The notes beneath the pieces were generated by a model. That model was given only the letters and a program-made list of their open reading frames with translations. It was not told the origin of the DNA and made no database searches. From sequence record LC494302.1: 64,000 nucleotides of DNA; one strand, written 5' to 3'. The position numbers and the translations under genes are program-made. Source of the stretch: Escherichia phage SP27. Shown piece by piece: positions 19,655 through 53,106 of this stretch (the first letter of the stretch is position 1; every line of letters starts with the position of its first letter).

Positions 19655-20165
19655 AGATGATATTCTAATTAGACTAATTAAGAGTTTAATAAAGTTCTCA
19701 AATAATGATGTCGATACATACAAAGTAGGGGATATTGAATTCAAATCATTTGGTATGTACGGTGAGGACAAAACATATTATGCGTCAATGAAATTTCAAG
19801 ATTTTCACGAGATGTTAATATCGTTATCATATGAAGATGTTGATCCAAGATGGAGTTCCAGTATTTCACTATCGAGAATGGTAATTCGTAGTAAGCATCG
19901 TTACATTTCGTCAAAGAATACTCCTAACTTGATTAATATTGTGTTGAATGAAAATACCAATCCTATATCTAAACTTGATATCGTACCGTTAACCGATGAA
20001 GTACTTTTTCAATTGAGTACCATTTGTGATGAAGATGTGATATCATGTATGAAAATTTATGAGACGGTTGGGAGTGATATTCACATGAACTATTACCTAA
20101 CGATAGATGGAACATACCTCAGAGATGAAGCTCTAGCGTACATTGACAGTGTTTTACCAAAATAA
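19647..20165 (+). CDS. FQxS-motif paralog family member
   Basis: ATG 19647 after GGAG; motif TDEVLFQLSTICDED. Confidence 0.65.
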   Translation: MDKDDILIRLIKSLIKFSNNDVDTYKVGDIEFKSFGMYGEDKTYYASMKFQDFHEMLISLSYEDVDPRWSSSISLSRMVIRSKHRYISSKNTPNLINIVLNENTNPISKLDIVPLTDEVLFQLSTICDEDVISCMKIYETVGSDIHMNYYLTIDGTYLRDEALAYIDSVLPK

Positions 20166-20186
20166 AGACCCTTATGGGTCTTTTTG
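20166..20186 (+). terminator. intrinsic terminator
   Basis: stem AGACCC/GGGTCT, loop TTAT, then TTTTT. Confidence 0.7.
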
Positions 20187-20252: not shown

Positions 20253-20819
20253 ATGAGTACTGAATTAATTAAAGAAGTTACCTTACTTCTGAAGCATTGT
20301 TTTAAGTTCATTCCTGATACTGGTTCACGCCAGTACATTAAAGTTAATGAGAAATATAACATCAATATCCTTGTATCTGAAACTGCGAGCAGTTATGCTA
20401 ACATTGAGTTGGATTCTGAAGAAAAATATACAGTATTACAAATCATAGCAGATGTACAACGTAAACAAGATTACCGTTCTTCATTTTACAACGATTATCT
20501 GTGTGTTTGCTCAAACTTCAGTGAGAATAAAATTGTGTATAAGAATTTATACACACATGAAGTGATTGATACATATAATTATAAAATTTCATCTGATGAA
20601 TACAATGTGCTAATGTTCAACGCAAACCTTTTGTATGATGCCAGTACTGTACGCTGTTTAGAGTTAGCATATAAAATTCCAAAGATCATGGAAAGAAAAG
20701 ATTTGATTCACTTTAAAACTATTTTAAAATACAGTACAAAAGAATTAGAGGATTTAGTACAGGCTCTTAAGAATTTCATTAATGAACATGTACCTGTTAA
20801 ATTCGAGGATGCACAATGA
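20253..20819 (+). CDS. hypothetical protein (possible degenerate FQxS member)
   Basis: 188-aa ORF, first gene after promoter. Confidence 0.6.
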   Translation: MSTELIKEVTLLLKHCFKFIPDTGSRQYIKVNEKYNINILVSETASSYANIELDSEEKYTVLQIIADVQRKQDYRSSFYNDYLCVCSNFSENKIVYKNLYTHEVIDTYNYKISSDEYNVLMFNANLLYDASTVRCLELAYKIPKIMERKDLIHFKTILKYSTKELEDLVQALKNFINEHVPVKFEDAQ

Positions 20820-21400
20820 ACCATATCAGAACTAAAATTTTGAGACTCATGCATGACATTGCAGAACTTTCAGAGATTCATGACATTACAGAAATTGTTG
20901 AATTTGATGATTATCGACTGAAAATTGAAAACAAATCCAAACATCGTTTTGGATCAGTTCAGTTGGATGTATATAAAACTTATGAATTTTCTAAAAAAAT
21001 TAAAAGTTCATGGGATACGATTACTATGTACATTCGCACATCCAGAAATCGTGAACGTATTGGTTCTATTTCTTCTAATATGGTATTTGCGAATGCATTA
21101 CATGAAAAAATGAATAAAATTGTAGAATCTGATTTCAGTGAAGATGATGGTTTTATTGGGTTGGATGTTCCACCAGAATTAGACCAAAGTGAAGATATTC
21201 GAGATGCATTCATTTTCCAGAAATCATTGTTGGACAATTACAAAGAATTCGAGTACTTAATGCTTTGTTACGATACTGCAAAAGTTCTTGATTGTGGTGA
21301 ACTAGTTATGTACAATGATTTTATCAATTACAAGACTGATGTTCTGAATACACTACTTCAAAATATAGAATCGGTTAAGGAAAAATATGAACGCTTATAG
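20816..21400 (+). CDS. FQxS-motif paralog family member
   Basis: motif RDAFIFQKSLLDN. Confidence 0.65.
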   Translation: MNHIRTKILRLMHDIAELSEIHDITEIVEFDDYRLKIENKSKHRFGSVQLDVYKTYEFSKKIKSSWDTITMYIRTSRNRERIGSISSNMVFANALHEKMNKIVESDFSEDDGFIGLDVPPELDQSEDIRDAFIFQKSLLDNYKEFEYLMLCYDTAKVLDCGELVMYNDFINYKTDVLNTLLQNIESVKEKYERL

Positions 21401-21965
21401 TTATATGACAGAACGCCATCAGTTATTATATGATATCAGTACAAAAATGTTATCAATTGTTAGTAGTGCAAAAGAAATTGAAAAACAATACCTCATCCGT
21501 GATGTAGCAATTTCATCTAAATGTTGGTCCAATGAATATTACGATCACGGTATTCTTACTATTTCTGGGGCTAGAAATATTTGTATTGTAAAAAATAAAA
21601 ATAAAAGTAATGAAGAGTGTGAGATTATAACCGATATACAAATTAAGGATGATGGAAGTTTTTCACACCACCCATTCCATATTAGTACTATTGGTGTTTT
21701 ATATAATATTAAAGTACTATTCGGTGATGAAGAGTATGTGTTAAAATCTATCAATCCAGAATCAAGTACAGTTGAAGAAGAACTGTTCCAGATGAGCACT
21801 GTTATACCTGAAGAGGTTCTTAGTACTGTTATTTTTTGTAGTTTAATTTATCATGAATACAAAAAGTACCAGTTCGATTTCCACATGTTAGGAACATACA
21901 TCTTCAATAATTTGAATGTAGATCGTTTAACAGCATTAAATGCAGCAATGGATAAGGTGCTATAA
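21387..21965 (+). CDS. FQxS-motif paralog family member
   Basis: motif TVEEELFQMSTVIPEE. Confidence 0.65.
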   Translation: MNAYSYMTERHQLLYDISTKMLSIVSSAKEIEKQYLIRDVAISSKCWSNEYYDHGILTISGARNICIVKNKNKSNEECEIITDIQIKDDGSFSHHPFHISTIGVLYNIKVLFGDEEYVLKSINPESSTVEEELFQMSTVIPEEVLSTVIFCSLIYHEYKKYQFDFHMLGTYIFNNLNVDRLTALNAAMDKVL

Positions 21966-22393
21966 TGACAAGAGATGATTGTTTGTACATATGGGATATA
22001 ATTGAAACTACACTTTCAAATCCAGAAAATTATAAAACAAAAAAAAGACAACGACACAAAATATGGATAGATTTGTTCGTTGAGGGCATACACGCAGTGA
22101 CTATTTGGGATTCACCGAGGGCATCATCATCTACTCTGTTGGACAATGAATGCATTGATTGCATTAATTCCACTTTTCATCTCTACGGTACTACAATTTT
22201 TGGTACATTTCTGGATATTGAAAGTAAAGATGATATTGATTCACTTGCGTTACAATACCAAGTACTATATAATACTAAATTAATTTACGATTTAGTACTA
22301 GCTTCTTATGTGTATAAATTAATGATGAAATATAATCATATTTCTGTTTCAGTTTATACTAAGGATATTCTTTCATTAAGAGACAAAACATGA
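21965..22393 (+). CDS. hypothetical protein (possible degenerate FQxS member)
   Basis: 142-aa ORF; weak LALQYQVLYN match. Confidence 0.55.
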   Translation: MTRDDCLYIWDIIETTLSNPENYKTKKRQRHKIWIDLFVEGIHAVTIWDSPRASSSTLLDNECIDCINSTFHLYGTTIFGTFLDIESKDDIDSLALQYQVLYNTKLIYDLVLASYVYKLMMKYNHISVSVYTKDILSLRDKT

Positions 22394-22899
22394 GTTTATT
22401 AAATGCACGCGAATTGGTTGAGATGTATGAGATTTTGTCTTCATATAAAAATTCTCCAAAAGATGTAATTCTAAACAAAAAGTTCCATGTCAGTGTTGAA
22501 CATATAACAAATATAGATATGATTTCTTTGGTGGAAAGTAATAAGTCAGGTCTGGAGCGTGATATCATGCGTTTGATTTATATTCCTAAACCATCATATA
22601 CTAATGATAGTACTATTAGCAATGAGACATTCATGTATAGTCCTGGTACGGATTCTACTATAGTATCGCTGTCCAATAAATCAATGGATACTTTCCAATT
22701 CATCTATACCAGTACTGATAACATTGAAGAAATTGAATTTCAAAACAATACATTAAGTCCATGTAGTAGTGTTATAACCTTTATGTCATATCTATGGTCA
22801 ACTAAAACAAGTGCTGTTGTATATAGTTCAAATTATACACAAGATAGTATTGTTGAATCATATAAAGTTCTAAAGGAATACTATGAAAATAACAAATGA
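22390..22899 (+). CDS. divergent FQxS-family member
   Basis: motif EEIEFQNNTLSP. Confidence 0.6.
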   Translation: MSLLNARELVEMYEILSSYKNSPKDVILNKKFHVSVEHITNIDMISLVESNKSGLERDIMRLIYIPKPSYTNDSTISNETFMYSPGTDSTIVSLSNKSMDTFQFIYTSTDNIEEIEFQNNTLSPCSSVITFMSYLWSTKTSAVVYSSNYTQDSIVESYKVLKEYYENNK

Positions 22900-23464
22900 T
22901 TTTATTAAAAGTGTAGTACACCCTATGCTTAGTATTATGAAAAAAATACAGAATCTACCGGAAGATAACGATTACAAGTTTAATCGTTTTGATTCAGATG
23001 TGTTTTGTATTGAAATTGAAATTAATAACAATCGTAATTTACATTTAAAATTCAAAGAATCTTCGAGTCCGTACTACAACTTTGATATGAATTTTAAAAT
23101 AGATACTGACATTGAAGAAAACGTAATATCAAATCATACTAGCAAAAATGGTTTTATGCATAGAACTACTATGTACAATAATAAAAATAGTATTATATCT
23201 AAATGGAATCAACAATTCACTAAAATTTGTGAAATTGAATATAATGATTTTGGTAAAGAACATTACTTTCAGTTAAGTACAATTCATGAACTTCCACCAT
23301 ATGATTATGTTAAAACATGGTTTGATATTCATAATATAATTGATGATGCAATCAAACTTCCATTTGGTGTGTCAATATCATATACTGCTCCTAAAACATT
23401 TGTTTTTACTGAAGATATGATTATGAAAAAGATATGGGCAATCATCCCACTTATGATGGATTAA
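22883..23464 (+). CDS. FQxS-motif paralog family member
   Basis: motif GKEHYFQLSTIHE. Confidence 0.65.
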   Translation: MKITNDFIKSVVHPMLSIMKKIQNLPEDNDYKFNRFDSDVFCIEIEINNNRNLHLKFKESSSPYYNFDMNFKIDTDIEENVISNHTSKNGFMHRTTMYNNKNSIISKWNQQFTKICEIEYNDFGKEHYFQLSTIHELPPYDYVKTWFDIHNIIDDAIKLPFGVSISYTAPKTFVFTEDMIMKKIWAIIPLMMD

Positions 23465-23470
23465 ATTTGT

Positions 23471-23496
23471 ACCAGGGGTTGACTCTGGTTTTTTTG
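23471..23496 (+). terminator. possible intrinsic terminator
   Basis: short stem ACCAG/CTGGT followed by T7. Confidence 0.4.
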
Positions 23497-23525
23497 TATG
23501 ATACATTGTTCTCAAGGAGAATTTT

Positions 23526-24077
23526 ATGAACTACAATCATGATCTTTTTACATTATGTGCATCCAAATGTGTTGAAGGATGGGCAGATAAAATCAATATC
23601 ATAATTCATCGATATCTCGTCTTTAGTTCCCGTGCACGAAGTGAGGGGGCTATGGATTTCAAATATACACTATCTATTGATGGTGTAACTATCCATGCAG
23701 ACGAAGAACGTCTGAACATTAATTTGTATGATTCCTGTGTATTTGCTATTCACCAAAAGATGGGGAAAGGATGGGGTTGTAATAACATTAACTCCAAAGC
23801 TATCTTTTGGGTTGGTCACCATCAGACAGTACTTGATCCTTCAATCAAATCTAATCTTTTATCCGATAATATGGTTTATGATTTATTGTACTCCGAAGAA
23901 CAACATTTTCAGTTAAGTACATTGCATGTTCTGGCACAGTACGAGGATTGTTACAAAACATTAGAACTATGCCATTCCCTTGAACTTAAAGATAAATTAA
24001 TACAAGTTTACCCTTCATTCTTTCATGAAGAAGTCCAAAGTACACTAGATCATATTTTATATGGATACGATAAATGA
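23526..24077 (+). CDS. FQxS-motif paralog family member
   Basis: motif SEEQHFQLSTLHV. Confidence 0.65.
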   Translation: MNYNHDLFTLCASKCVEGWADKINIIIHRYLVFSSRARSEGAMDFKYTLSIDGVTIHADEERLNINLYDSCVFAIHQKMGKGWGCNNINSKAIFWVGHHQTVLDPSIKSNLLSDNMVYDLLYSEEQHFQLSTLHVLAQYEDCYKTLELCHSLELKDKLIQVYPSFFHEEVQSTLDHILYGYDK

Positions 24078-24676
24078 GAAAAAGTTATCAAGAAGCTATT
24101 GACTTAATTCGTGAAGTTATCAAGGTGGCTCCTGCTGCTATTGAGTTCAAGAAGTCCATATACAAGAAGTATGGGTCAATGTCGAGTATGTGCTTTCAAA
24201 AGAAACGTAGAGCATTCACTACCCAGTACTGGAATGATTCTATCATCCTGAGCAATGAGACTCAGCGTATTTTAACACTAGAATCTGAACCTAATGAGTA
24301 CGGGGAAGGAAACATTTGTGTACCTGATTATGATGAAATTAACTTCAACTGCGGTGATTTTGAAACAACATTATTACTTCATGAGGGTTATCCAGAAGGT
24401 GATGTATTAGCTGAATACAATCCAAAAACTAAAATTCTCAAAAGAGGAATTCAGTTCACTATTAATAACAAAGATGATGTTGAAGCAGCACTGATGCAAC
24501 TGAGTACAAGTGAACCTATCACTATTAGTGTAGAAGAGTTATGGGGAATTATTTCAGTACTCAATGAGTGCTATAAAGTAAAATCATTGCGTAATCACAC
24601 CCTTATATTGCATACTAATATGGCAAATATAAAATGTAAGCACATTCAAGAAATGGTGGTTCCAGATGGACTTTAA
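24074..24676 (+). CDS. divergent FQxS-family member
   Basis: motif VEAALMQLSTSEP. Confidence 0.55.
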   Translation: MRKSYQEAIDLIREVIKVAPAAIEFKKSIYKKYGSMSSMCFQKKRRAFTTQYWNDSIILSNETQRILTLESEPNEYGEGNICVPDYDEINFNCGDFETTLLLHEGYPEGDVLAEYNPKTKILKRGIQFTINNKDDVEAALMQLSTSEPITISVEELWGIISVLNECYKVKSLRNHTLILHTNMANIKCKHIQEMVVPDGL

Positions 24677-25250
24677 AGAAATTGAAAGTAAATTAAAGTA
24701 CTTCAAAGATATCAAACTTCTTTGGGAAAAGTATAAAATTGATTACAATTTCAGTGATGATGAGACAATAAAATACATTGAGATTAATATCAAAATCAAG
24801 TTCAAGAATAATAATTATGGTGAAGTAAGCTTAAATCATGCTGGTATATCACTCAAGGACTATGATGGTTCAACACTCGCATATTTCGACTTCACACCAG
24901 AACCAGGTGAAACACTACTTAGTGAGATAAATTCCTATGACATGGAAGTGTTCGGCGGGAATCCGTTACTGTTCCGACTTTCTGAAGAGTGGAGTGAAGA
25001 ATACTACACTTACAAAGATGGTGTAGTACTTGACATTCATGGAGAAGTTGTGAATGACTTGGAAGAACGTTTGTTCCAAGAATTGTGTGTTTCAAATACT
25101 TCATATGCATACAATCATATCCTTGACATGTTTGATTTATATAGTAAAATAGATGCTGAAATGAATGCACATGGTATTCATTACCTTACAATTAACGACT
25201 ATGCTCAACTCGAAACCGCTGTGAAAGCATTGACTAAAGTACTGAAATAG
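24666..25250 (+). CDS. divergent FQxS-family member
   Basis: motif LEERLFQELCVS. Confidence 0.6.
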   Translation: MDFKEIESKLKYFKDIKLLWEKYKIDYNFSDDETIKYIEINIKIKFKNNNYGEVSLNHAGISLKDYDGSTLAYFDFTPEPGETLLSEINSYDMEVFGGNPLLFRLSEEWSEEYYTYKDGVVLDIHGEVVNDLEERLFQELCVSNTSYAYNHILDMFDLYSKIDAEMNAHGIHYLTINDYAQLETAVKALTKVLK

Positions 25251-25259
25251 GAATGAAAT

Positions 25260-25673
25260 ATGAAACTGTATCATGCGAGTACTGTAAAAATTGATAACTT
25301 TTATATCCCGTATGGTGGCCTTCATATGGGAGGTAAACACAGTGCTTTAGAAGCTGCCTTACGCAAGCTGAGAAGCCCACTAAACGTTGTTGACGCATGT
25401 ACAGTATACTTGCATACCTTAGAAGTTGATGTTGATAACGTGCTTCTGTGTGAAGATTTAGGCAGTGATGATGAGTGGCGTTCACTTATTGAGAATTGCA
25501 CGGCTCAAGGTTATGATGCTGTTCAGTACAAAAATGATTACGAGCCAGACAATGTTCCTAGCTTTATGATTTGGGATACATCTAAAATTCGTATTATTGA
25601 AGTTGATGCGATGCATATGGATGAAGCTGAAATGATCATCGAAGATTTCCTTGATGAATATGAAGGTGTATAA
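25260..25673 (+). CDS. hypothetical protein, compositionally distinct from neighbours
   Basis: 137-aa ORF with RBS; visibly GC-richer; three shadow minus-strand ORFs cluster here. Confidence 0.6.
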   Translation: MKLYHASTVKIDNFYIPYGGLHMGGKHSALEAALRKLRSPLNVVDACTVYLHTLEVDVDNVLLCEDLGSDDEWRSLIENCTAQGYDAVQYKNDYEPDNVPSFMIWDTSKIRIIEVDAMHMDEAEMIIEDFLDEYEGV

Positions 25674-26191
25674 TGATTGAACCTATGACAGTACTAGCAC
25701 GTACTAAATTATTATTGAAGATTGCTGAAATATTCACTGTTCTTATGTACAATAATCAAGACATAACTGACTTAGGTATTAAGCAACCGTGGCAAATTAC
25801 AAAGTTCACGGCGTTCCACCGATTGTCATATAATGGTGAAACTGTTCTTGATTTTAATCCAAAAGCCACGTTCGTGAATTACGCTGCATTATATGGATGT
25901 AATGGTGGATTAACAAATGACTTCACTGAAATAAAAGTACAATCAGAATCATTAGAATTTAATGACTTAATATATCCAGAATTTAAGTTAACAGAAGAAA
26001 CACTATTTCAGTACTCACTAATTATAAAAGATGTATATGATCTTGAGTACTACAAAGAGTTAGTAGATATTTTTAAGAATACTCGACTTTCAAAAGATAT
26101 TGTGATATTCTGGTATGTTGAGTATGTTACAGAGGAATTGCTAGAAGAATTTCTTCTAAATATGACAGCTATAAAGGAGAAGTTATGTTAG
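25673..26191 (+). CDS. FQxS-motif paralog family member
   Basis: motif TEETLFQYSLIIKD. Confidence 0.65.
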   Translation: MIEPMTVLARTKLLLKIAEIFTVLMYNNQDITDLGIKQPWQITKFTAFHRLSYNGETVLDFNPKATFVNYAALYGCNGGLTNDFTEIKVQSESLEFNDLIYPEFKLTEETLFQYSLIIKDVYDLEYYKELVDIFKNTRLSKDIVIFWYVEYVTEELLEEFLLNMTAIKEKLC

Positions 26192-26658
26192 ATATTTTAG
26201 GAAACATCGACACTGCAAATTATTTTATTCAAGATGCATTGTTTAATACAGTACAACAAGGTTTAGAAGTTCACCACAATGTTTATCAGGGTGATGGATA
26301 TTTTGTTGATATTATCGAGACACGTAAAAATACATTTAATGTTAACATTACGACGCTTGGAAGACAGAACATTGCACGAATTTTAGTAAGTAAAGATGAA
26401 ATAGTACTGAGATACAGTGCTAAGTTTATGTTGACTTATAAGAAAAAAACTGATATGTTCAGTACTAATTTATTTGATGAGCCATTTGACCTTGAAGATA
26501 TTGAAGCTACTTTCTTTACTCAAAGTACTATGGTAAAATACACTGATGTTCAATTTTCTGCTGATGTAATGTCAGAAACATTACAAATGATCAAGGTATT
26601 ATTTTATGCATTTGAGCAATTTAGAGAAGAAAGAAACAAGGTTAACAACCACAGATGA
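26185..26658 (+). CDS. divergent FQxS-family member
   Basis: motif EATFFTQSTMV. Confidence 0.55.
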   Translation: MLDILGNIDTANYFIQDALFNTVQQGLEVHHNVYQGDGYFVDIIETRKNTFNVNITTLGRQNIARILVSKDEIVLRYSAKFMLTYKKKTDMFSTNLFDEPFDLEDIEATFFTQSTMVKYTDVQFSADVMSETLQMIKVLFYAFEQFREERNKVNNHR

Positions 26659-27019
26659 ACTAATAGAGGCGATCACTAAGGAGTCAAAATACCATAAAGG
26701 GATTCGTCTATACTTTATAGATACTGGTTCGATGGAAGGTACATACATTTATGGTTCACAATCGTTGTCTTATGATGCAATGCCAAATAAACATGTTAAA
26801 ATCTTTTTAGGTTCAAGTAATAAAACTTTCTTGACAATTAATGATAAAAACGTTATTATGAATTCGTTGGGTCATGATAAGGTGGAAATTGATCTAAACA
26901 CGCTGGAGGATATTGATTTTTTTCAATACGAGTGTTTAGGTGTTGACTTACATGGCATTAGTAGCGATATGATAAAATCATTAATCAAATATTTCGAAGG
27001 TGTTCATAAATGTATCTAA
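26606..27019 (+). CDS. divergent FQxS-family member
   Basis: motif EDIDFFQYECLG; start uncertain (53-nt overlap). Confidence 0.55.
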   Translation: MHLSNLEKKETRLTTTDELIEAITKESKYHKGIRLYFIDTGSMEGTYIYGSQSLSYDAMPNKHVKIFLGSSNKTFLTINDKNVIMNSLGHDKVEIDLNTLEDIDFFQYECLGVDLHGISSDMIKSLIKYFEGVHKCI

Positions 27020-27507
27020 CTAAATCAATGAAAAATTCATTTGATAAAATTAAGAGTTGTCTTGATGGAGAAAATATTACAAGTGTTACACAAACTGCTG
27101 ACCAAATTCAAAGCAGTTCAAGTGATTGCACTGTTATTTTTGGTTTACATAGTCTGCGTTTATCAATAGTAAATAATATTGACAACACTGCTATTGTAAT
27201 CACACCATGCAATATTCAAAATGAGAATGGTGTATATCTTCATCACATGGGAACAGTATTTCACATTTTCAATTCAAACGAAAACATTGTTAAGGAATAC
27301 AATACTCTTAATATTGATTCAGGTGAATTATTTCAAATGAGTACTTTGTACTCATGTAATTTTACAGATACTTCATGTATTTTGCCATTTTTCTTGGAAA
27401 TTATTAAGAAAATGGAAAATTTAAAACGTGAATACAATAAAGAAATGGTTCCTGAAGCTATATTAAATATTACTAATGCTATAGAGAAGTATAATGCAGT
27501 GACTTAA
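27010..27507 (+). CDS. FQxS-motif paralog family member
   Basis: motif DSGELFQMSTLYS. Confidence 0.65.
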   Translation: MYLTKSMKNSFDKIKSCLDGENITSVTQTADQIQSSSSDCTVIFGLHSLRLSIVNNIDNTAIVITPCNIQNENGVYLHHMGTVFHIFNSNENIVKEYNTLNIDSGELFQMSTLYSCNFTDTSCILPFFLEIIKKMENLKREYNKEMVPEAILNITNAIEKYNAVT

Positions 27508-27549
27508 TAAAAACGCACATGGAGTGCATTAGAAGATCAAGGATAGATC

Positions 27550-28023
27550 ATGGAGATTAAAACTGTTGAAAATGGGAAAATTGATGACATTTTAGAGTTG
27601 GACGCATTCAAAGTTCATGATATAATGTTTAATGTGAAGGACATTATTCAATGTCTATTTTTGTGTAGCAAGACAATGCATGATTTTTTTCACAACCCAA
27701 ATACTAACGTTTTTATACTAACAATCAGTACTGAAAACTCGTTTATCATGGGTATGCCTATGAGTACAAATGAACAATATATTGATTGTGTTATTCGTAA
27801 TAACGATAGTATTACGCCACAATCTGAAGTACGTAAAAAGAAAAACACCTACACAATCAAAGATGATAAAATTATGATGTGCTGTAGTAAAGGGTTTATA
27901 TTAGATAATTTTATCGTAAAAGACAGTTATCACGACTTTAAAGTATCTGAAAATCAATCCAATGTAGTTCTTTATGCGAGTGACATAGAAAGTCTAACAG
28001 TTAAAGATCCTAGTTTGGAGTAA
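27550..28023 (+). CDS. hypothetical protein
   Basis: 157-aa ORF. Confidence 0.55.
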   Translation: MEIKTVENGKIDDILELDAFKVHDIMFNVKDIIQCLFLCSKTMHDFFHNPNTNVFILTISTENSFIMGMPMSTNEQYIDCVIRNNDSITPQSEVRKKKNTYTIKDDKIMMCCSKGFILDNFIVKDSYHDFKVSENQSNVVLYASDIESLTVKDPSLE

Positions 28024-28025
28024 TT

Positions 28026-28157
28026 ATGTCGAAGAAAGTTAACAATTTCGTACAGAAACATATGAATGAGTTTAATAAACCTCAGACACATGTGGATCGT
28101 AAAAAAGAAATGAAAAATGGTAAAGTAAAACACAAGTCGAGATTTATTCTCGACTAA
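28026..28157 (+). CDS. possible small basic protein (43 aa)
   Basis: ATG 28026 after GGAG; Lys-rich; stop sits inside the downstream terminator hairpin. Confidence 0.35.
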   Translation: MSKKVNNFVQKHMNEFNKPQTHVDRKKEMKNGKVKHKSRFILD

Positions 28158-28164
28158 TTTTTTG
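28136..28164 (+). terminator. intrinsic terminator
   Basis: stem GTCGAG/CTCGAC, 6-nt loop, then T-run. Confidence 0.5.
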
Positions 28165-28186
28165 TCTAAATTTATGAGGATTGTAT

Positions 28187-29035
28187 ATGTTAGACATTTC
28201 AGATTTTCTTAATTTTAAAAAGTATTCAGTACTTGAACATATCAACGAATTTCTGAATTCTACTACACCATTTGGTATCAGTACATCAGATGCATACGAT
28301 GGATATACAATCTTCCCATACAATGACTTTCAAATTTCCGTCAAAAAAGGTTTTACAAAAGAAGTTGCAATTCGTGATGTAGTAATGTATAGCGATTCTT
28401 CTATTTCTTACTGTCATGATGTGAACAAGTTTGAATCTCTTGCAACACCTAATTGTTCATACTACAAATCACATGACACGATGATGTATAAAGAACAACA
28501 TATCAATGGTGTTTCGTTCTATAAAACTAGCAGTGATAAATCATATACATCTAGAGATGATTTTGGAAAATACACATGTACTATGCACACGGATAATGAA
28601 AAAACAAATTACACTCATTCATTCGAGTCCAAATTCCAAGAGAGTGAAGTTTCAAATATCACTATACAAGAACAGGTTTCAGAAGGCATTGTATATCGTA
28701 GCACTGCATTCTTTCGCATGAAAGATATTGCCACAGGCAGACCAATGATGTACAATATTGACATATACATGAAAGGTGATATATCCGAAGTAGTGATTAG
28801 TACTGGTTATCGTGAAAAATATACAGTTACAATGGAATCACCAGATGCATCATTAGTTCATCTCTTTAACAATTTATATACATTCCAATTCGAACTTAGT
28901 TTCGATCCAAATGAATATCAAATATTTGATATATTAAAAAGTAATATTATTAATAAGTTAGAATATTACTACAAGTTAGGTGGTAAGATGTGCATAGTTA
29001 ATACTATGTTACATAACATAAAAGAAACATTATAA
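28187..29035 (+). CDS. hypothetical protein
   Basis: ATG 28187 after GAGGA; about 282 aa; no FQxS core. Confidence 0.6.
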   Translation: MLDISDFLNFKKYSVLEHINEFLNSTTPFGISTSDAYDGYTIFPYNDFQISVKKGFTKEVAIRDVVMYSDSSISYCHDVNKFESLATPNCSYYKSHDTMMYKEQHINGVSFYKTSSDKSYTSRDDFGKYTCTMHTDNEKTNYTHSFESKFQESEVSNITIQEQVSEGIVYRSTAFFRMKDIATGRPMMYNIDIYMKGDISEVVISTGYREKYTVTMESPDASLVHLFNNLYTFQFELSFDPNEYQIFDILKSNIINKLEYYYKLGGKMCIVNTMLHNIKETL

Positions 29036-29051
29036 ATCTGGAGGATTTGGT

Positions 29052-29345
29052 ATGGATACTAAATTCAAAATTATTTTTAAAACTAAGCCGTATATTCCAC
29101 ATACAGCAGAACGTTTTATACCACATGGTGCTGAGGAAATTATTCACCAAGATGGTACTAAGTTATACCTTGTTCCTTGTTCTTATGAACGTGCAGTAGA
29201 AATGTTACTAATGAATGCTAGACTATGCAAAAACAAGTACATTAGTTACCTATACAATGAACATATTTTAGATTTCAATGATGAAAATATGTTCATTCTA
29301 GCAATTGAGGATTTTGATAACTGGTACAATATTATTAAAATCTAA
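29052..29345 (+). CDS. hypothetical protein
   Basis: 97-aa ORF with RBS GGAGGA. Confidence 0.6.
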   Translation: MDTKFKIIFKTKPYIPHTAERFIPHGAEEIIHQDGTKLYLVPCSYERAVEMLLMNARLCKNKYISYLYNEHILDFNDENMFILAIEDFDNWYNIIKI

Positions 29346-29353
29346 TGAAAATA

Positions 29354-29401
29354 ATGTGAACATATTAGATTCTTGTGATATAATGTTCACATCTTTTTTT
29401 T
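29354..29401 (+). terminator. intrinsic terminator whose loop embeds an extended -10 promoter
   Basis: perfect 10-bp arms ATGTGAACAT/ATGTTCACAT, 19-nt loop, T8; TG-n-TATAAT at 29376-29384. Confidence 0.65.
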
Positions 29402-29417
29402 GATAACGGAGATATAG

Positions 29418-29804
29418 ATGAATACAAGTTCAATCCTAAAAGCAATTGGTGGTGTTTTACTCATTGAAGTAAAAGGTGAACCAAAGCTATGCTGTTTAGA
29501 AGATATGAAGAATACAAAACACTTCAGTACTGGTCAGATTTTCAATGCCATTCGTATTCTAAATGACAAATCCATTGCTGATTATGGAAAAGTTTGGCCT
29601 GTATATCAAAATGCTGATGGTGATATCAGTACTGATTGGAAAACAATTGAGGCGGTACGACAAAGTTGTGAGAGTGATTGGGACTTCATTGTTGAAGTTT
29701 GTGATCAACTACAAGAAGATGTTCCAGAAATTGTCGAACGAAAAGAAGTCCTAGCACGACTTGAAAAATTCCGTCACGGAACACTACAGTATGACACAAT
29801 CTAA
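29418..29804 (+). CDS. hypothetical protein
   Basis: 128-aa ORF with RBS GGAG. Confidence 0.6.
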   Translation: MNTSSILKAIGGVLLIEVKGEPKLCCLEDMKNTKHFSTGQIFNAIRILNDKSIADYGKVWPVYQNADGDISTDWKTIEAVRQSCESDWDFIVEVCDQLQEDVPEIVERKEVLARLEKFRHGTLQYDTI

Positions 29805-29853
29805 TCTGCTTATTAAAAATATCTAATTAACATTATATAAAAGGAATTTAAAA

Positions 29854-30159
29854 ATGGAAGACAATGGAATGAAATTTGATATGTTTGAAGGTGTACCAGA
29901 GTTCGATTTCAATAAACTTGAAAATGGTGAAGAATCAGAACTAGTAAGTGTTACACTAAAATCAGATACCAAAAAGAAATATTCCCCATCAGTTCGTTCA
30001 CGTTCTCAAGAAGAATATGAAACCTTCATTGAGAGTATTCATTACGAAACGTTCCATCATGCAGATGGTACTCCGTATGAAGTTCGTGTTACAGTACTGA
30101 AGCCTGAAGTAAACCCAATGGAAAATCTACGTCCTGTTTACTGCTGGGCAAGCCACTAA
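29854..30159 (+). CDS. hypothetical protein
   Basis: 101-aa ORF with RBS AAGGAA. Confidence 0.6.
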   Translation: MEDNGMKFDMFEGVPEFDFNKLENGEESELVSVTLKSDTKKKYSPSVRSRSQEEYETFIESIHYETFHHADGTPYEVRVTVLKPEVNPMENLRPVYCWASH

Positions 30160-30168
30160 TAAACCAAA

Positions 30169-30198
30169 GGACGGGATATAATATCTCGTCTTTTTTTT
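30169..30198 (+). terminator. intrinsic terminator
   Basis: near-palindrome GACGGGATAT/ATATCTCGTC followed by T8. Confidence 0.6.
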
Positions 30199-31059: not shown

Positions 31060-31089
31060 GACATACCATAAGTTTATGATATAATGTAA

Positions 31090-31122
31090 GGTGACAGCAG
31101 AATATGTTGTCGCCTTTTTTTT
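31090..31122 (+). terminator. intrinsic terminator
   Basis: 10-bp stem GGTGACAGCA/TGTTGTCGCC (2 G-U pairs), 5-nt loop, T8. Confidence 0.75.
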
Positions 31123-31659: not shown

Positions 31660-32280
31660 ATGCGTAGCATGGTAATTCTACTGATGTTGATGAAATCAAC
31701 GTCACGTATATTCATTGATGTTTCCATAGGAATAATGATGGCATTTATTAGAAAAGAAAAAACTGTTACTTATAAAACTTTGAATTTTGATGATTGCATT
31801 AATCAATCACAAGACGAAGATATCTTTACTGGATATGTGGTTATTAAAGAAAAAGGATGCATTTCTTATATAAAGGAATTGCAAAATGGAATTGAAGTGA
31901 CTTCAGTTAAATTACTTCCTACTCAAAAACCAACAATATCAAAAGCCCAGTATGGTAATTATTTTGAAGAAAGATATAGTAATAATTCAATAAGTGTTAA
32001 GGCTCATATTATTAAAGGAGAACTAGAAGGAGAATATAGAAAATACAACCCACAAGGAAAATGTGTTTGGGTTAAATACTTCAATTCAGGATATGATGTA
32101 ACATCTGAAATTATAGAGTTCTTAGGTTTAAAATGTACCCCTGAGACTATTCATGATTACAAGTTCAATACTGAAGAAGAGTTTAATCTGATGATGCGTT
32201 ACGGTTCACATTTTAAATTTTTATATGAATATAACATTGACAGTAGTACTTTTGATAAGATAGTACACAACTGTCTCTAA
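31660..32280 (+). CDS. hypothetical protein
   Basis: 206-aa ORF; start uncertain (ATG lies in a 9-bp hairpin GTAGAATTA/TAATTCTAC). Confidence 0.5.
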   Translation: MRSMVILLMLMKSTSRIFIDVSIGIMMAFIRKEKTVTYKTLNFDDCINQSQDEDIFTGYVVIKEKGCISYIKELQNGIEVTSVKLLPTQKPTISKAQYGNYFEERYSNNSISVKAHIIKGELEGEYRKYNPQGKCVWVKYFNSGYDVTSEIIEFLGLKCTPETIHDYKFNTEEEFNLMMRYGSHFKFLYEYNIDSSTFDKIVHNCL

Positions 32281-34565: not shown

Positions 34566-34841
34566 ATGAATTATAAAGTTCTACAATATACATACAGTGT
34601 TTTGTTTGATTTACATCACAATGGAAGATATCTCAATACAATACGAGAAAACACATTCACTCATACTATCTGGATTAATCACTTAATAATGATACGTGAA
34701 TATTTTGTTAATAGTGAGATAATCATTCGTGGTAAAAAACAGAAGATAGAACAAGTTAATAGTTTTGGTGGTAAATTAGTACTATCATTTATAGATAGTA
34801 ATACTAATGAAAGATATAGTATAGATTTGGTGGACATATGA
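34566..34841 (+). CDS. small protein, family C
   Basis: about 90 aa; N-terminus MNYKVLQYTYSVLFDL. Confidence 0.6.
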   Translation: MNYKVLQYTYSVLFDLHHNGRYLNTIRENTFTHTIWINHLIMIREYFVNSEIIIRGKKQKIEQVNSFGGKLVLSFIDSNTNERYSIDLVDI

Positions 34842-35416: not shown

Positions 35417-35728
35417 ATGAATATAAATGATATACAATTCACATACAAATTTTTGTATATCCAATACGCTACGGTTGATGCTGGAGAATATCTCTACAGT
35501 GAAATCTATCGTTCGGTATGGATAAAGTTTTTGGATGAATTACATGAATATTACCATGATTTGTGTATAGTTCGTGATAATAAAATATACAAATTCCGCG
35601 ATATTGTTAGTCATAGCGGTAAGCTACGATTGGAATTAAGTACTGATAGTGATGTTGATTGGATTGGTGTAAATTTACTGGAGTTGGAGAATGAAAAACA
35701 ACTTAAAGGAAATACAAGTATTTTATAA
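35417..35728 (+). CDS. small protein, family C
   Basis: N-terminus MNINDIQFTYKFLYIQ. Confidence 0.6.
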   Translation: MNINDIQFTYKFLYIQYATVDAGEYLYSEIYRSVWIKFLDELHEYYHDLCIVRDNKIYKFRDIVSHSGKLRLELSTDSDVDWIGVNLLELENEKQLKGNTSIL

Positions 35729-35975
35729 ATTCTTATACTTATCATATGTAAAAGATGAGTACTATGAAAGTGTGTATTATTTTTTATGGCAACATTACCG
35801 TACTATAGTAAGAGATTTATATATAGGAAAATCTATCATATCCAATGGTGAAAAATGTATCTGTACGGATGTAGTTAGTTTTAATGGTTCTTTAACACTG
35901 TGTTTCAGATGCGATAATAATAGTGGGTCATTTTCATTAAACGTATATCAGTTAGAAGGAATAAATTTTGAATAA
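35691..35975 (+). CDS. small protein, family C
   Basis: N-terminus MKNNLKEIQVFYKFLYL. Confidence 0.55.
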   Translation: MKNNLKEIQVFYKFLYLSYVKDEYYESVYYFLWQHYRTIVRDLYIGKSIISNGEKCICTDVVSFNGSLTLCFRCDNNSGSFSLNVYQLEGINFE

Positions 35976-42076: not shown

Positions 42077-43009
42077 ATGCCAACTATCACACTAACAGTT
42101 GGATTGCCTGGGTGTGGTAAAACTACATGGGCAGTGCAAGAGATTAAAAACGCCAAATCCAAGACTATCAACATCAACCGTGATGATATTCGTGAATCTA
42201 TGGCTGGGTCACATGATGCTTACAAATTCAACGATGCTAATGAGCAGTACGTAACTAATTTACAGTTCAGTGCAGCAAATTCAGCAGCAGAGAATGGTTG
42301 GAACATCATCATATCCGATACGAACCTTAAACAACATTTCCGTAATCTATGGAAAGTATGGGCTAAAGATAATGGCTATGATTACAAAGAAAAGAACTTC
42401 TATGATGATTTTGTACCTAATGAAGACCGTGGTGCAGATGTTCATGAATTCTTTAAGATTAAAGAGTTCGTAAAACTTTGCAAGAAATATAATCTCCAGC
42501 GTGAGCGTTCAGTACAAGATAATATCATTGACACTATGGCAGATACGTACTATTATAGTAAAGCATTGCACATTGGTTACTATGGTAATTCACGAGAAGC
42601 TGCTATTATCGTTGATATCGACGGTACTCTTGCTCATAAATGGGGTCGTAATCCTTACGATGAAAGTACTGTTCTTCAGGATACACCTGATGAAGAAGTT
42701 ATTTTGTCTATTATCGCTGAAGCAGTTTTTCATAAACGCAAGATTATCGTCATGAGTGGGCGTACTGAAGGGTGTCGTGCTGATACCGAACAGTGGCTTA
42801 AGAATTGGGGTGTTCCTTACGATGCATTGTTTATGCGAGATATCGATGATAAACGTCCTGATGATGTTGTAAAATTCGACCTGTACATGAAAAATGTGGT
42901 TGATCATTACGATGTTAAAAAGGTATATGATGACCGCGATCAAGTTGTATTCATGTGGCGTAAACTACTTGGGTTGAAAGTTTTCCAAGTGGCTGAAGGA
43001 AATTTCTAA
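42077..43009 (+). CDS. pseT: polynucleotide 5'-kinase / 3'-phosphatase
   Basis: Walker A GLPGCGKTT; phosphatase DxDGT motif VDIDGTLA; T4 Pnk-like C-terminus WQVAEGNF. Confidence 0.9.
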   Translation: MPTITLTVGLPGCGKTTWAVQEIKNAKSKTININRDDIRESMAGSHDAYKFNDANEQYVTNLQFSAANSAAENGWNIIISDTNLKQHFRNLWKVWAKDNGYDYKEKNFYDDFVPNEDRGADVHEFFKIKEFVKLCKKYNLQRERSVQDNIIDTMADTYYYSKALHIGYYGNSREAAIIVDIDGTLAHKWGRNPYDESTVLQDTPDEEVILSIIAEAVFHKRKIIVMSGRTEGCRADTEQWLKNWGVPYDALFMRDIDDKRPDDVVKFDLYMKNVVDHYDVKKVYDDRDQVVFMWRKLLGLKVFQVAEGNF

Positions 43010-52410: not shown

Positions 52411-53106
52411 ATGGTTGAACAATTCATGTTTGGTGGTTATGCTAATGGCGAAGTACGTAACATTTCTATTCCTTACGTAGTTGAGAAAGTTAATGGTTCA
52501 GAACGTACATATGATCTAGCATCTCGTATGATGCAAGACCGTATCATTTTCCTTGATACTGATTTCAATGATCAAATGGCACATATCATCAAACAACAAT
52601 TGGTATGGTTAGACTCACAAGGTGATTCCCCTATTACATTCTACATTAGTTCACCGGGTGGTTCAGTACACGCAGGTTTGGGTATTGCAGACGTTGCTAA
52701 GTCTTGTATTTCGCCAATTCGCACTGTAGTAATGGGCTATGCAGCATCAATGGGTTGCTATACACAATCTGTTATTGGGACTAAAGGTTTCCGTTTAGGT
52801 GGTAAACGCTCATACTTCATGTGTCATCAAGTAAGTTCTGGTACACAAGGTCTAATTACAGACCAGAAGATTTCCCTACAACATTCTGATGCACTGAATA
52901 CATTGTTGACCAAAGAAATTGCAGAAGCTGTAGGTGTATCACATGAACAATTACTAAAAGATGCTGACCGCGATTTGTGGTTAAATGCAGAAGAAGCACT
53001 TGAATATGGTGAACATGGTTTCATTGATGGTATTATTCTTGGACCACGTAACGAAGAAGGCAAGTACTTAGTTAAGCGTCGCGGTGGTGTAGAAGAGTGG
53101 GTGTAA
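52411..53106 (+). CDS. clpP: ClpP-like serine protease subunit
   Basis: ClpP signature ERTYDLASRMMQDRIIFL, SPGGSV, MGYAASMG. Confidence 0.85.
   Translation: MVEQFMFGGYANGEVRNISIPYVVEKVNGSERTYDLASRMMQDRIIFLDTDFNDQMAHIIKQQLVWLDSQGDSPITFYISSPGGSVHAGLGIADVAKSCISPIRTVVMGYAASMGCYTQSVIGTKGFRLGGKRSYFMCHQVSSGTQGLITDQKISLQHSDALNTLLTKEIAEAVGVSHEQLLKDADRDLWLNAEEALEYGEHGFIDGIILGPRNEEGKYLVKRRGGVEEWV

Follow-up and report, generated by a model that had tools for sequence, protein, structure and literature searches.

The stretch of the Escherichia phage SP27 genome analyzed here spans 64,000 nucleotides (LC494302.1; referred to below as the window). Between positions 623 and 27507, plus 31660–32280, it carries a tandem array of about 46 strongly diverged paralogs, whose mean identity is roughly 14% and whose sole common feature is a central E-E-x-x-F-Q-x-S-T motif. 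Within this array, at 25260–25673 on the plus strand, lies the open reading frame (ORF) with which we are concerned. Its product is a stand-alone protein of 137 amino acids with a predicted ADP-ribosyltransferase (ART) fold. The gene, hereafter the ART gene, has long belonged to the core genome of the RaK2-like jumbo phages, is inherited vertically, and forms a fixed anchor in an otherwise fast-evolving array. The coordinates of the gene, its signals and its surroundings are collected in Table 1.

Plain BLASTP connects only 23 members of the array, located between 623 and 18568. Membership was defined by an iterated hidden Markov model (HMM) seeded with ORFs bearing the F-Q-x-S-T motif, with a cut-off of E < 0.01. 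This model found 46 other ORFs and did not recover the ART gene, in agreement with the original prediction, which had described the ORF as lacking the family core. Four further ORFs within the array likewise fail to match the family model (20253–20819, 21965–22393, 26185–26658 and 27550–28023).

The ORF had also been described as visibly richer in guanine and cytosine (GC) than its neighbors, and as a possible foreign insertion, a piece of horizontally acquired cargo. The difference in composition is real: with a GC content of 0.386 it ranks first among the 53 ORFs of the array (z +2.87) and third among the 115 ORFs of the window. Measured against 414-nucleotide segments, it lies at the 99.4th percentile within the array and only at the 96th percentile window-wide (z +1.8). 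However, relative to the array ORFs the excess resides entirely in codon position 1 (GC1 0.551, z +4.1), with little deviation at position 2 (GC2 z +0.9) or position 3 (GC3 0.312, z +0.5). Given the encoded amino acids, synonymous codon choice compared with window-wide usage yields z −1.41 for the ART gene and −1.43 for the upstream gene (window standard deviation [SD] 1.31), and GC3 observed minus expected yields z 1.06 (window SD 1.32). Third-position GC and codon choice are thus the same as in the neighboring genes, and only total GC differs. Because only codon position 1 carries the excess, the higher GC stems from amino-acid composition and not from a foreign donor; Ala, Asp, Val, Gly and Glu are over-represented in the protein, and Phe, Lys, Ser, Asn and Ile are under-represented. 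A similar GC1-driven profile is found in conserved genes of the same phage, for example 42077–43009 (GC 0.384, GC1 0.514) and 52411–53106 (GC 0.398, GC1 0.547). The higher GC is that of a constrained globular enzyme, rich in Gly, Ala, Asp, Glu and Val, amid AT-drifted, fast-evolving paralogs.

A tblastn search with the 137-amino-acid protein returned matches in 74 phage records. All Asteriusvirus records among the matches listed carry the gene, with 88–100% amino-acid identity. The window itself belongs to an Asteriusvirus jumbo coliphage: the DNA of 23500–27500 is 97.3% identical in PBECO4 and 94–96% identical in 121Q, UB, phAPEC6 and about 30 other records (320–386 kb), and the ART protein is typically 98.5% identical where the flanking DNA is about 94.6% identical. 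More distant orthologues were found in the Klebsiella phages RaK2, K64-1 and Muenster (58%), the Salmonella phages Munch and 7t3 (52%), Cronobacter phage GAP32 (47%), Serratia phage BF together with Erwinia and Yersinia jumbo phages (44–46%), Pectobacterium phage CBB (39%) and a 136-kb Vibrio phage (38%). The gene occupies the same slot in all relatives examined, comprising 30 Asteriusvirus records among the matches listed, RaK2, GAP32, Serratia phage BF and six metagenomic RaK2-like contigs from IMG/VR; the only exceptions to its presence are the deletion-ridden records of the Salmonella SD series. In ph0011, RaK2, GAP32 and BF the gene order is paralogs, the ART gene, one to four paralogs, and then homologues of 26185–26658, 27550–28023, 29418–29804 and 29854–30159.

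The ART gene is also under stronger constraint than the genes beside it. It ranks among the best-conserved genes of this segment. In the comparison with ph0011 the protein is 90.5% identical, well above the values for its two neighbors (Table 1), and the ratio of nonsynonymous to synonymous divergence (dN/dS) is 0.117. The dN is 0.049, whereas the flanking genes reach 0.18 and 0.14. Its amino-acid identities across Asteriusvirus, RaK2, GAP32 and BF (90, 58, 47 and 45%) are all higher than those of the flanking paralogs, and outside Asteriusvirus the neighbors of the ART gene are barely detectable or not detectable at all. Because the gene is better conserved than the surrounding array, it is the array that turns over around the ART gene, which does not interrupt it. 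Beyond the RaK2-like phages, homologues in Vibrio phage helene 12B3 and in two IMG/VR contigs are not associated with a paralog array and instead sit beside replication genes, with neighbors encoding a primase/helicase and an endonuclease, a UvrD-like helicase, or a DnaB-like helicase and an HNH protein.

These data bear directly on whether the gene is recent foreign cargo that came from a donor of higher GC and entered a paralog array already in place. Such an origin would account for the highest GC among the array ORFs (z +2.9), for the position of the ORF outside the array family, and for the homologues in unrelated phages and other contexts; given those homologues, the family must have moved between phage lineages at some time. 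However, the third-position GC and synonymous codon choice are native, GC1-driven GC of equal size occurs in the phage's own conserved genes, and the gene holds an identical syntenic position in four genera, where its identities are higher than those of the genes on either side. Furthermore, it is translationally coupled to both neighbors and has neither flanking repeats nor a promoter or terminator of its own, the terminator scan having found none private to it. Recent horizontal acquisition is therefore essentially excluded, and the presence of the gene at the same position in every relative examined runs contrary to an insertion. A different objection could be raised from the minus strand, where the original prediction had noted the only cluster of long shadow ORFs. 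Minus-strand stretches that run for at least 60 codons without a stop do reach their greatest depth in the window over 24919–25501 (99.7th percentile), and these ORFs are, as the original prediction had assumed, shadows and not genes. On the other hand, the individual stretches are ordinary in length (83–88 codons, in a window with 34 stretches of at least 80 codons, the longest 151), and half of the cluster is underlain by the upstream gene and not by the ART gene. That the window's densest minus-strand cluster falls at this place might suggest a real minus-strand gene opposite a spurious plus-strand ORF. This reading has practically no probability and is refuted by the conservation of the plus-strand ORF, which has orthologues down to 39% identity, a dN/dS of 0.12 and a confident fold, whereas the minus-strand ORFs are short and overlap one another in different frames; two of the four are open in ph0011, and none of comparable size exists in RaK2.

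Turning to the protein itself, the corresponding family, PHROG 11632, has no function annotated, while two GenBank records (ph0011 and Muenster) name the orthologue 'putative ADP-ribosyl transferase'. With 31 homologues as input, AlphaFold2 produced a model with a predicted local distance difference test (pLDDT) score of 90.4 and a predicted template modeling (pTM) score of 0.83. The model displays the split beta-sheet of the ART fold, and a Foldseek search against the PDB agrees, with MbcT as the top structural match. Against the predicted viral structures of BFVD, Foldseek recovered many ART-PolyVal-like domain-containing proteins, an N4-like virion RNA polymerase (RNAP)-ART fusion and MuF fusions. 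A profile search of 1.84 billion cluster representatives yielded 120 relatives, most of them stand-alone proteins of 115–150 amino acids and some of them domains within proteins of 2,500–3,700 amino acids. The giant polyvalent proteins matched by the family profile also carry canonical ART-PolyVal domains (PF18760), and the matches to domains of these proteins have whole-library E-values of 1e-10 to 1e-4. All seven of the matched segments of giant proteins in turn match PF18760, three of them above the gathering score. In the wider family 12 of 96 members match PF18760 (best E 9.8e-17), and the only other family to recur is its relative DUF3990. Finally, an hhalign comparison of canonical ART-PolyVal domains with the alignment of the 69 family sequences gave a probability of 91% and an E-value of 1.1e-6 over 99 columns. 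The homology and structure searches called for by the original prediction therefore lead to an ART fold with a profile-level link to ART-PolyVal. Judged from these alignments, the protein appears to represent a divergent branch of the H-Y-[E/D] (diphtheria-toxin/PARP-like) clade of ARTs, closest to the ART-PolyVal domains of injected polyvalent proteins of phages and conjugative elements.

The active site of ART-PolyVal consists of a His on strand 1, a Tyr on strand 2 and an Asp on strand 5, and the clade is related to PARPs and diphtheria toxin (Iyer et al., PMC5512222). In the 137-amino-acid protein, region 1, where a His or Arg that binds NAD+ is expected on strand 1, is represented by His5. 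The invariant Ser101 aligns with the canonical strand-5 acid, and the invariant Glu95 and Asp97 are found four to six residues upstream, in a strand 4–strand 5 loop that is three residues longer than that of canonical ART-PolyVal and carries Tyr90, Asn92 and Glu95. Across 69 sequences, including the copies in polyvalent proteins, D66, W73, Y90, N92, E95 and S101 never vary, and conservation of H5, H22 and G24 is 94–98%. This invariance of polar residues argues for a retained, if putative, active site. There is precedent for activity from an unusual set of residues, as AcrIF11 has a non-canonical H-F-H-D configuration and is nevertheless an active and highly specific ART (PMC11383003).

Taken together, the protein is probably an NAD+ (nicotinamide adenine dinucleotide)-dependent mono-ADP-ribosyltransferase that is produced from an early operon of the type read by host RNAP and that modifies a host macromolecule for take-over or counter-defence. 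We infer that the gene would be co-transcribed and translationally coupled with its neighbors early in infection, in an operon with a sigma-70-like promoter and an intrinsic terminator. The NAD+-binding cleft would consist of strand 1 (His5-Ala-Ser7), strand 2 (His22-x-Gly24-Gly25) and the strand 4–strand 5 loop (Tyr90, Asn92, Glu95, Ser101). ADP-ribose could then be transferred to a host macromolecule, aiding infection through host take-over or counter-defence. The protein would in this way be a counterpart of T4 ModA and ModB, of the injected ART-PolyVal domains and of AcrIF11. ART-PolyVal domains have been predicted to modify host proteins early in infection (Iyer et al., PMC5512222). The suggestion in the original prediction of anti-defence or host-modifying cargo is in this respect plausible, given the ART fold, the kinship with ART-PolyVal and the AcrIF11-like size and fold, although the gene is not foreign cargo.

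Several observations weigh against this proposal. Membership in the ART-PolyVal family is transitive: the protein itself has no match in Pfam, NCBIfam or PDB sequences, even at E ≤ 10, and the PF18760 gathering threshold (31.2 bits) is not reached, there being no match at E ≤ 10 for the protein or for 31 close homologues. The H/Y/D configuration of ART-PolyVal is absent, and H5, H22 and S101 with the loop residue E95 are found in its place. MbcT, which lacks the region-3 acid (Gly152), is an NAD+ phosphorylase without a protein acceptor (PMC6436930), and an ART fold without this acid can be an NAD+ phosphorylase or an inactive pseudo-enzyme. Promoter-like sites in the region are not more common than in shuffled sequences, and the operon model therefore rests mainly on terminators and gene overlaps. 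Furthermore, no study of the expression, proteomics or biochemistry of any family member emerged from the literature searched.

It is unlikely that the protein consumes NAD+ with no macromolecular acceptor, as an NADase or NAD+ phosphorylase of the MbcT/RES type, or that it acts on small molecules derived from NAD+. MbcT shares the missing region-3 acid, and Ser101 is found at the equivalent position of the 137-amino-acid protein. However, the strand-1 residue is a His, whereas the essential residue of MbcT is Arg27 (PMC6436930), and no Xre-type antitoxin or conserved adjoining partner was found in the loci compared. Nor is there a sequence-level link to RES in Pfam, while the link to ART-PolyVal is significant; the invariant Glu95 is available in the loop, and depletion of NAD+ would seemingly be costly for a lytic phage. 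An enzyme directed at nucleic acids, similar to DarT or Tpt1/KptA and acting on DNA or on RNA/DNA phosphate ends, also seems improbable. The pattern of His on strand 1, His on strand 2 and a non-acidic residue on strand 5 is reminiscent of KptA/Tpt1, whose configuration is H-H-h, and the homologue adjoins replication genes in the three non-RaK2 contexts compared. Proximity to replication genes is, however, common for any early or middle phage gene, the structural scores to such enzymes are far below those to the protein-modifying diphtheria toxin/PARP/RES group, and the sequence profiles lead to ART-PolyVal and not to Tpt1 or DarT. There is little likelihood, too, of a catalytically dead ART-fold pseudo-enzyme that acts by binding, for instance as a stoichiometric inhibitor or as a sensor of NAD+ or ADP-ribose. 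Although the absence of the region-3 acid would be compatible with such a protein, the invariance of H5, H22, D66, N92, E95 and S101 in more than 69 sequences, some as little as about 25% identical, polyvalent copies included, is typical of a retained active site. A mono-ADP-ribosyltransferase acting on a host macromolecule thus remains our preferred interpretation. As a long shot, the H-H-S site with its loop Glu may define an ART subfamily with non-canonical chemistry or an unusual acceptor (nucleic-acid ends, a small molecule or a defence component). The ART would then be the catalytic anchor of a counter-defence module shared by all RaK2-like jumbo phages, in which the roughly 46 paralogs could serve, for example, as decoys or as adaptors for particular targets.

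Comparison with known systems places the protein more precisely. Like ART-PolyVal (PF18760; a clade related to Tox-ART-HYD2; Iyer et al. 2017, PMC5512222), it is of phage origin and has the ART fold. Both have a strand-1 His within [Y]-H-[GA]-[ST], the motif G-[YF]-[DE]-[GAS]-hydrophobic ahead of strand 4 and a C-terminal strand of the form 'hydrophobic-F/W-D-x-x-x-I', and sister copies of the protein's own subfamily sit in giant polyvalent proteins beside canonical PF18760 domains. Unlike ART-PolyVal, the 137-amino-acid protein stands alone outside a polyvalent protein, is without evidence of virion packaging, falls below every Pfam threshold, and has His22 in place of Tyr, Ser101 in place of the acid, a loop Glu95 and the additional invariant residues D66 and W73. 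AcrIF11 (PDB 6KYF, 8DWQ) is similar in size and fold and also has non-canonical catalytic residues. This likeness is at the level of the fold only, as no sequence homology was found in PDB searches with a single sequence or with a profile. AcrIF11 differs in having an acidic pair, D115/E116, at the catalytic loop, and its target, Cas8f of type I-F CRISPR, is without demonstrated relevance to these hosts. AcrIF11 is also a mobile gene of acr loci, whereas the gene for the 137-amino-acid ART is fixed in the core genome of a lineage of lytic jumbo phages.

The T4 proteins Alt, ModA and ModB are phage mono-ARTs for host take-over, of which ModA and ModB are small and expressed early, and an analogy between this T4-type take-over and the ARTs of jumbo phages has been proposed (Iyer et al., PMC7824862). 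The T4 enzymes belong to the R-S-E clade (PMC5512222), in contrast to the strand-1 His and apparent H-Y-[E/D] affiliation of the protein studied here, to which they show no sequence similarity. Likewise, MbcT (an NAD+ phosphorylase), the ParT ART and RES toxins differ from it, the RES proteins having an essential region-1 Arg, an R-E-S motif and a paired Xre antitoxin (PMC6436930). The 137-amino-acid ART has His5 in region 1, no Pfam RES match and array paralogs as neighbors.

Two weaker matches were rejected. A PADLOC match to HamA/DUF1837 (E 0.0059, 14 bits, residues 98–133) was dismissed as short and sub-threshold, and profile matches to RecA concatemers among PDB sequences were an artefact built up from six repeated matches that scored about 5 bits apiece, all with i-Evalues above 100. 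Three HMMs found no second ART-like gene in the window. The RaK2-like Yersinia phage fHe-Yen9-03 encodes an additional protein of 199 amino acids that is annotated as ART-PolyVal-like (BFVD A0A2C9D1N7).

Table 1. Features at and around the ART gene of phage SP27, in window coordinates.
Feature	Position	Strand	Evidence
Terminator-like hairpin, 5' boundary of the transcription unit, followed by sigma-70-like sites at 23479–23537	23471–23489	+	Terminator/promoter scan
Upstream array paralog, 194 amino acids; its 3' half adds to the local GC bump and the shadow ORFs	24666–25250	+	Family HMM match; 73% amino-acid identity to ph0011
Cluster of four overlapping minus-strand ORFs, 59–83 amino acids; shadow ORFs, not genes	24919–25501	−	Open-frame scan and comparison with ph0011 and RaK2
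Candidate internal promoter, sigma-70-like TTGACA-16-TAAAAT inside the upstream paralog, about 110 nucleotides 5' of the ART start; weak evidence	25123–25150	+	11 of 12 matches
Shine-Dalgarno-like AGGA, 7 nucleotides 5' of the ATG, overlapping the stop codon of the upstream paralog (25248–25250)	25249–25252	+	Sequence; kept in ph0011 and 121Q
ART gene, 137-amino-acid stand-alone protein with a predicted ADP-ribosyltransferase fold (divergent ART-PolyVal-like; PHROG 11632)	25260–25673	+	
His5 codon, strand 1, motif L-Y-H-A-S; aligns with the His of canonical ART-PolyVal Y-H-G-T	25272–25274	+	94% conserved in 69 members; hhalign columns
His22 codon, strand 2, motif G-G-L-H-x-G-G; at the canonical strand-2 Tyr position (Y of G-F-Y-F-G)	25323–25325	+	97% conserved; alignment
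Y90-x-N92-x-x-E95-P-D97-x-x-x-S101: end of strand 4, ARTT-like loop with Glu95, Ser101 starting strand 5	25527–25562	+	Conservation, alignment, predicted secondary structure
TAATG, in which the stop codon overlaps the start codon of the downstream paralog (translational coupling)	25671–25675	+	Sequence
Downstream array paralog, 172 amino acids	25673–26191	+	Family HMM match; 77% amino-acid identity to ph0011
Terminator-like hairpin closing the putative operon 23526–28023, which contains the ART gene	28135–28155	+	Terminator scan

The terminator-like hairpins nearest to the ART gene enclose a unit of nine genes (Table 1). Such sites are enriched, with 15 found against 4.0 ± 2.0 expected from shuffles, and those at 20164–20183, 23471–23489, 28135–28155, 30166–30194 and 31088–31116 split the array into multi-gene units; the hairpins at 20164–20183 and 28135–28155 score on both strands. 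Both hexamers of the candidate internal promoter are kept in ph0011 and 121Q, even though the paralog that contains them is much less conserved at the protein level. In RaK2, GAP32 and BF the arrangement of the ART gene is different, in that it overlaps the upstream gene by 4 nucleotides.

RaK2-like jumbo phages, among them PBECO4, 121Q, RaK2 and GAP32, are candidate agents for phage therapy, and for more than 80% of their genes no function is known. One conserved gene of their early region is now placed in the ART fold, and the reading of this region is corrected accordingly, in that the GC bump marks a constrained enzyme serving as a fixed anchor while the mobile part is the paralog array. 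If the enzyme is active, its His/His/Ser site with a loop Glu, common to the copies in polyvalent proteins, would widen the catalytic repertoire of the H-Y-[E/D] clade. In other respects the finding is an ordinary one. That jumbo phages encode several ARTs has already been stated in surveys (PMC7824862, PMC9503650), and two GenBank records were already annotated in this way. What is new is, on the strength of the alignments, a stand-alone, divergent ART-PolyVal-like subfamily with an apparent variant active site. The literature searched contains no paper treating the ART gene or the array, and neither is mentioned in the phAPEC6 virion-proteome paper, the Sharanji paper or a 2026 jumbo-phage review.

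Among the Salmonella SD-series records, that of phage SD-1_S14 (OR699183) is 99% identical to 20274–29930 of the window and has about 10 small deletions in 10 kb, one of which, equivalent to 25324–26040, removes ART residues 22–137 and most of the next gene. The record contains 677 fragmented coding sequences in 310 kb, reflecting either real genome reduction or an assembly artefact. This deletion was not relied on as a sign that the gene is dispensable, given the roughly 10 other small deletions and the possible artefact. Truncated or patchy copies of the ART gene are present in SD-6_S16 and SD-2_S15.

The array itself varies on a short scale. Synonymous divergence (dS) from ph0011 over 20816–30159 is uneven between adjacent genes, with values of 0.12 at 21965–22393, 1.32 at 20816–21400 and 1.04 at 24666–25250. 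These jumps suggest that genes of the array have been replaced or have recombined in mosaic fashion. Across RaK2-like genera, one to four paralogs separate the ART gene from the next anchor, the homologue of 26185–26658, and the array grows and shrinks between its fixed anchors. An AlphaFold2 model of the paralog at 25673–26191, based on an alignment of 38 window paralogs, had a pLDDT of 59 and was unusable.

Two further conserved anchors lie near the ART gene. The product of 27550–28023 (157 amino acids) is extremely constrained, with a dN/dS of 0.011 relative to ph0011, and is 64% identical in RaK2 and 54% identical in GAP32 and BF, and 26185–26658 is similar, with a dN/dS of 0.04. Pfam searches of conserved neighbors (27550–28023, 26185–26658, 29418–29804 and others) for a macrodomain, NADAR or antitoxin partner gave sub-threshold noise only, and no conserved partner gene was found beside the ART gene in the loci compared. 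Farther downstream, BLASTP joins three ORFs (34566–34841, 35417–35728 and 35691–35975) into a second group of paralogs.

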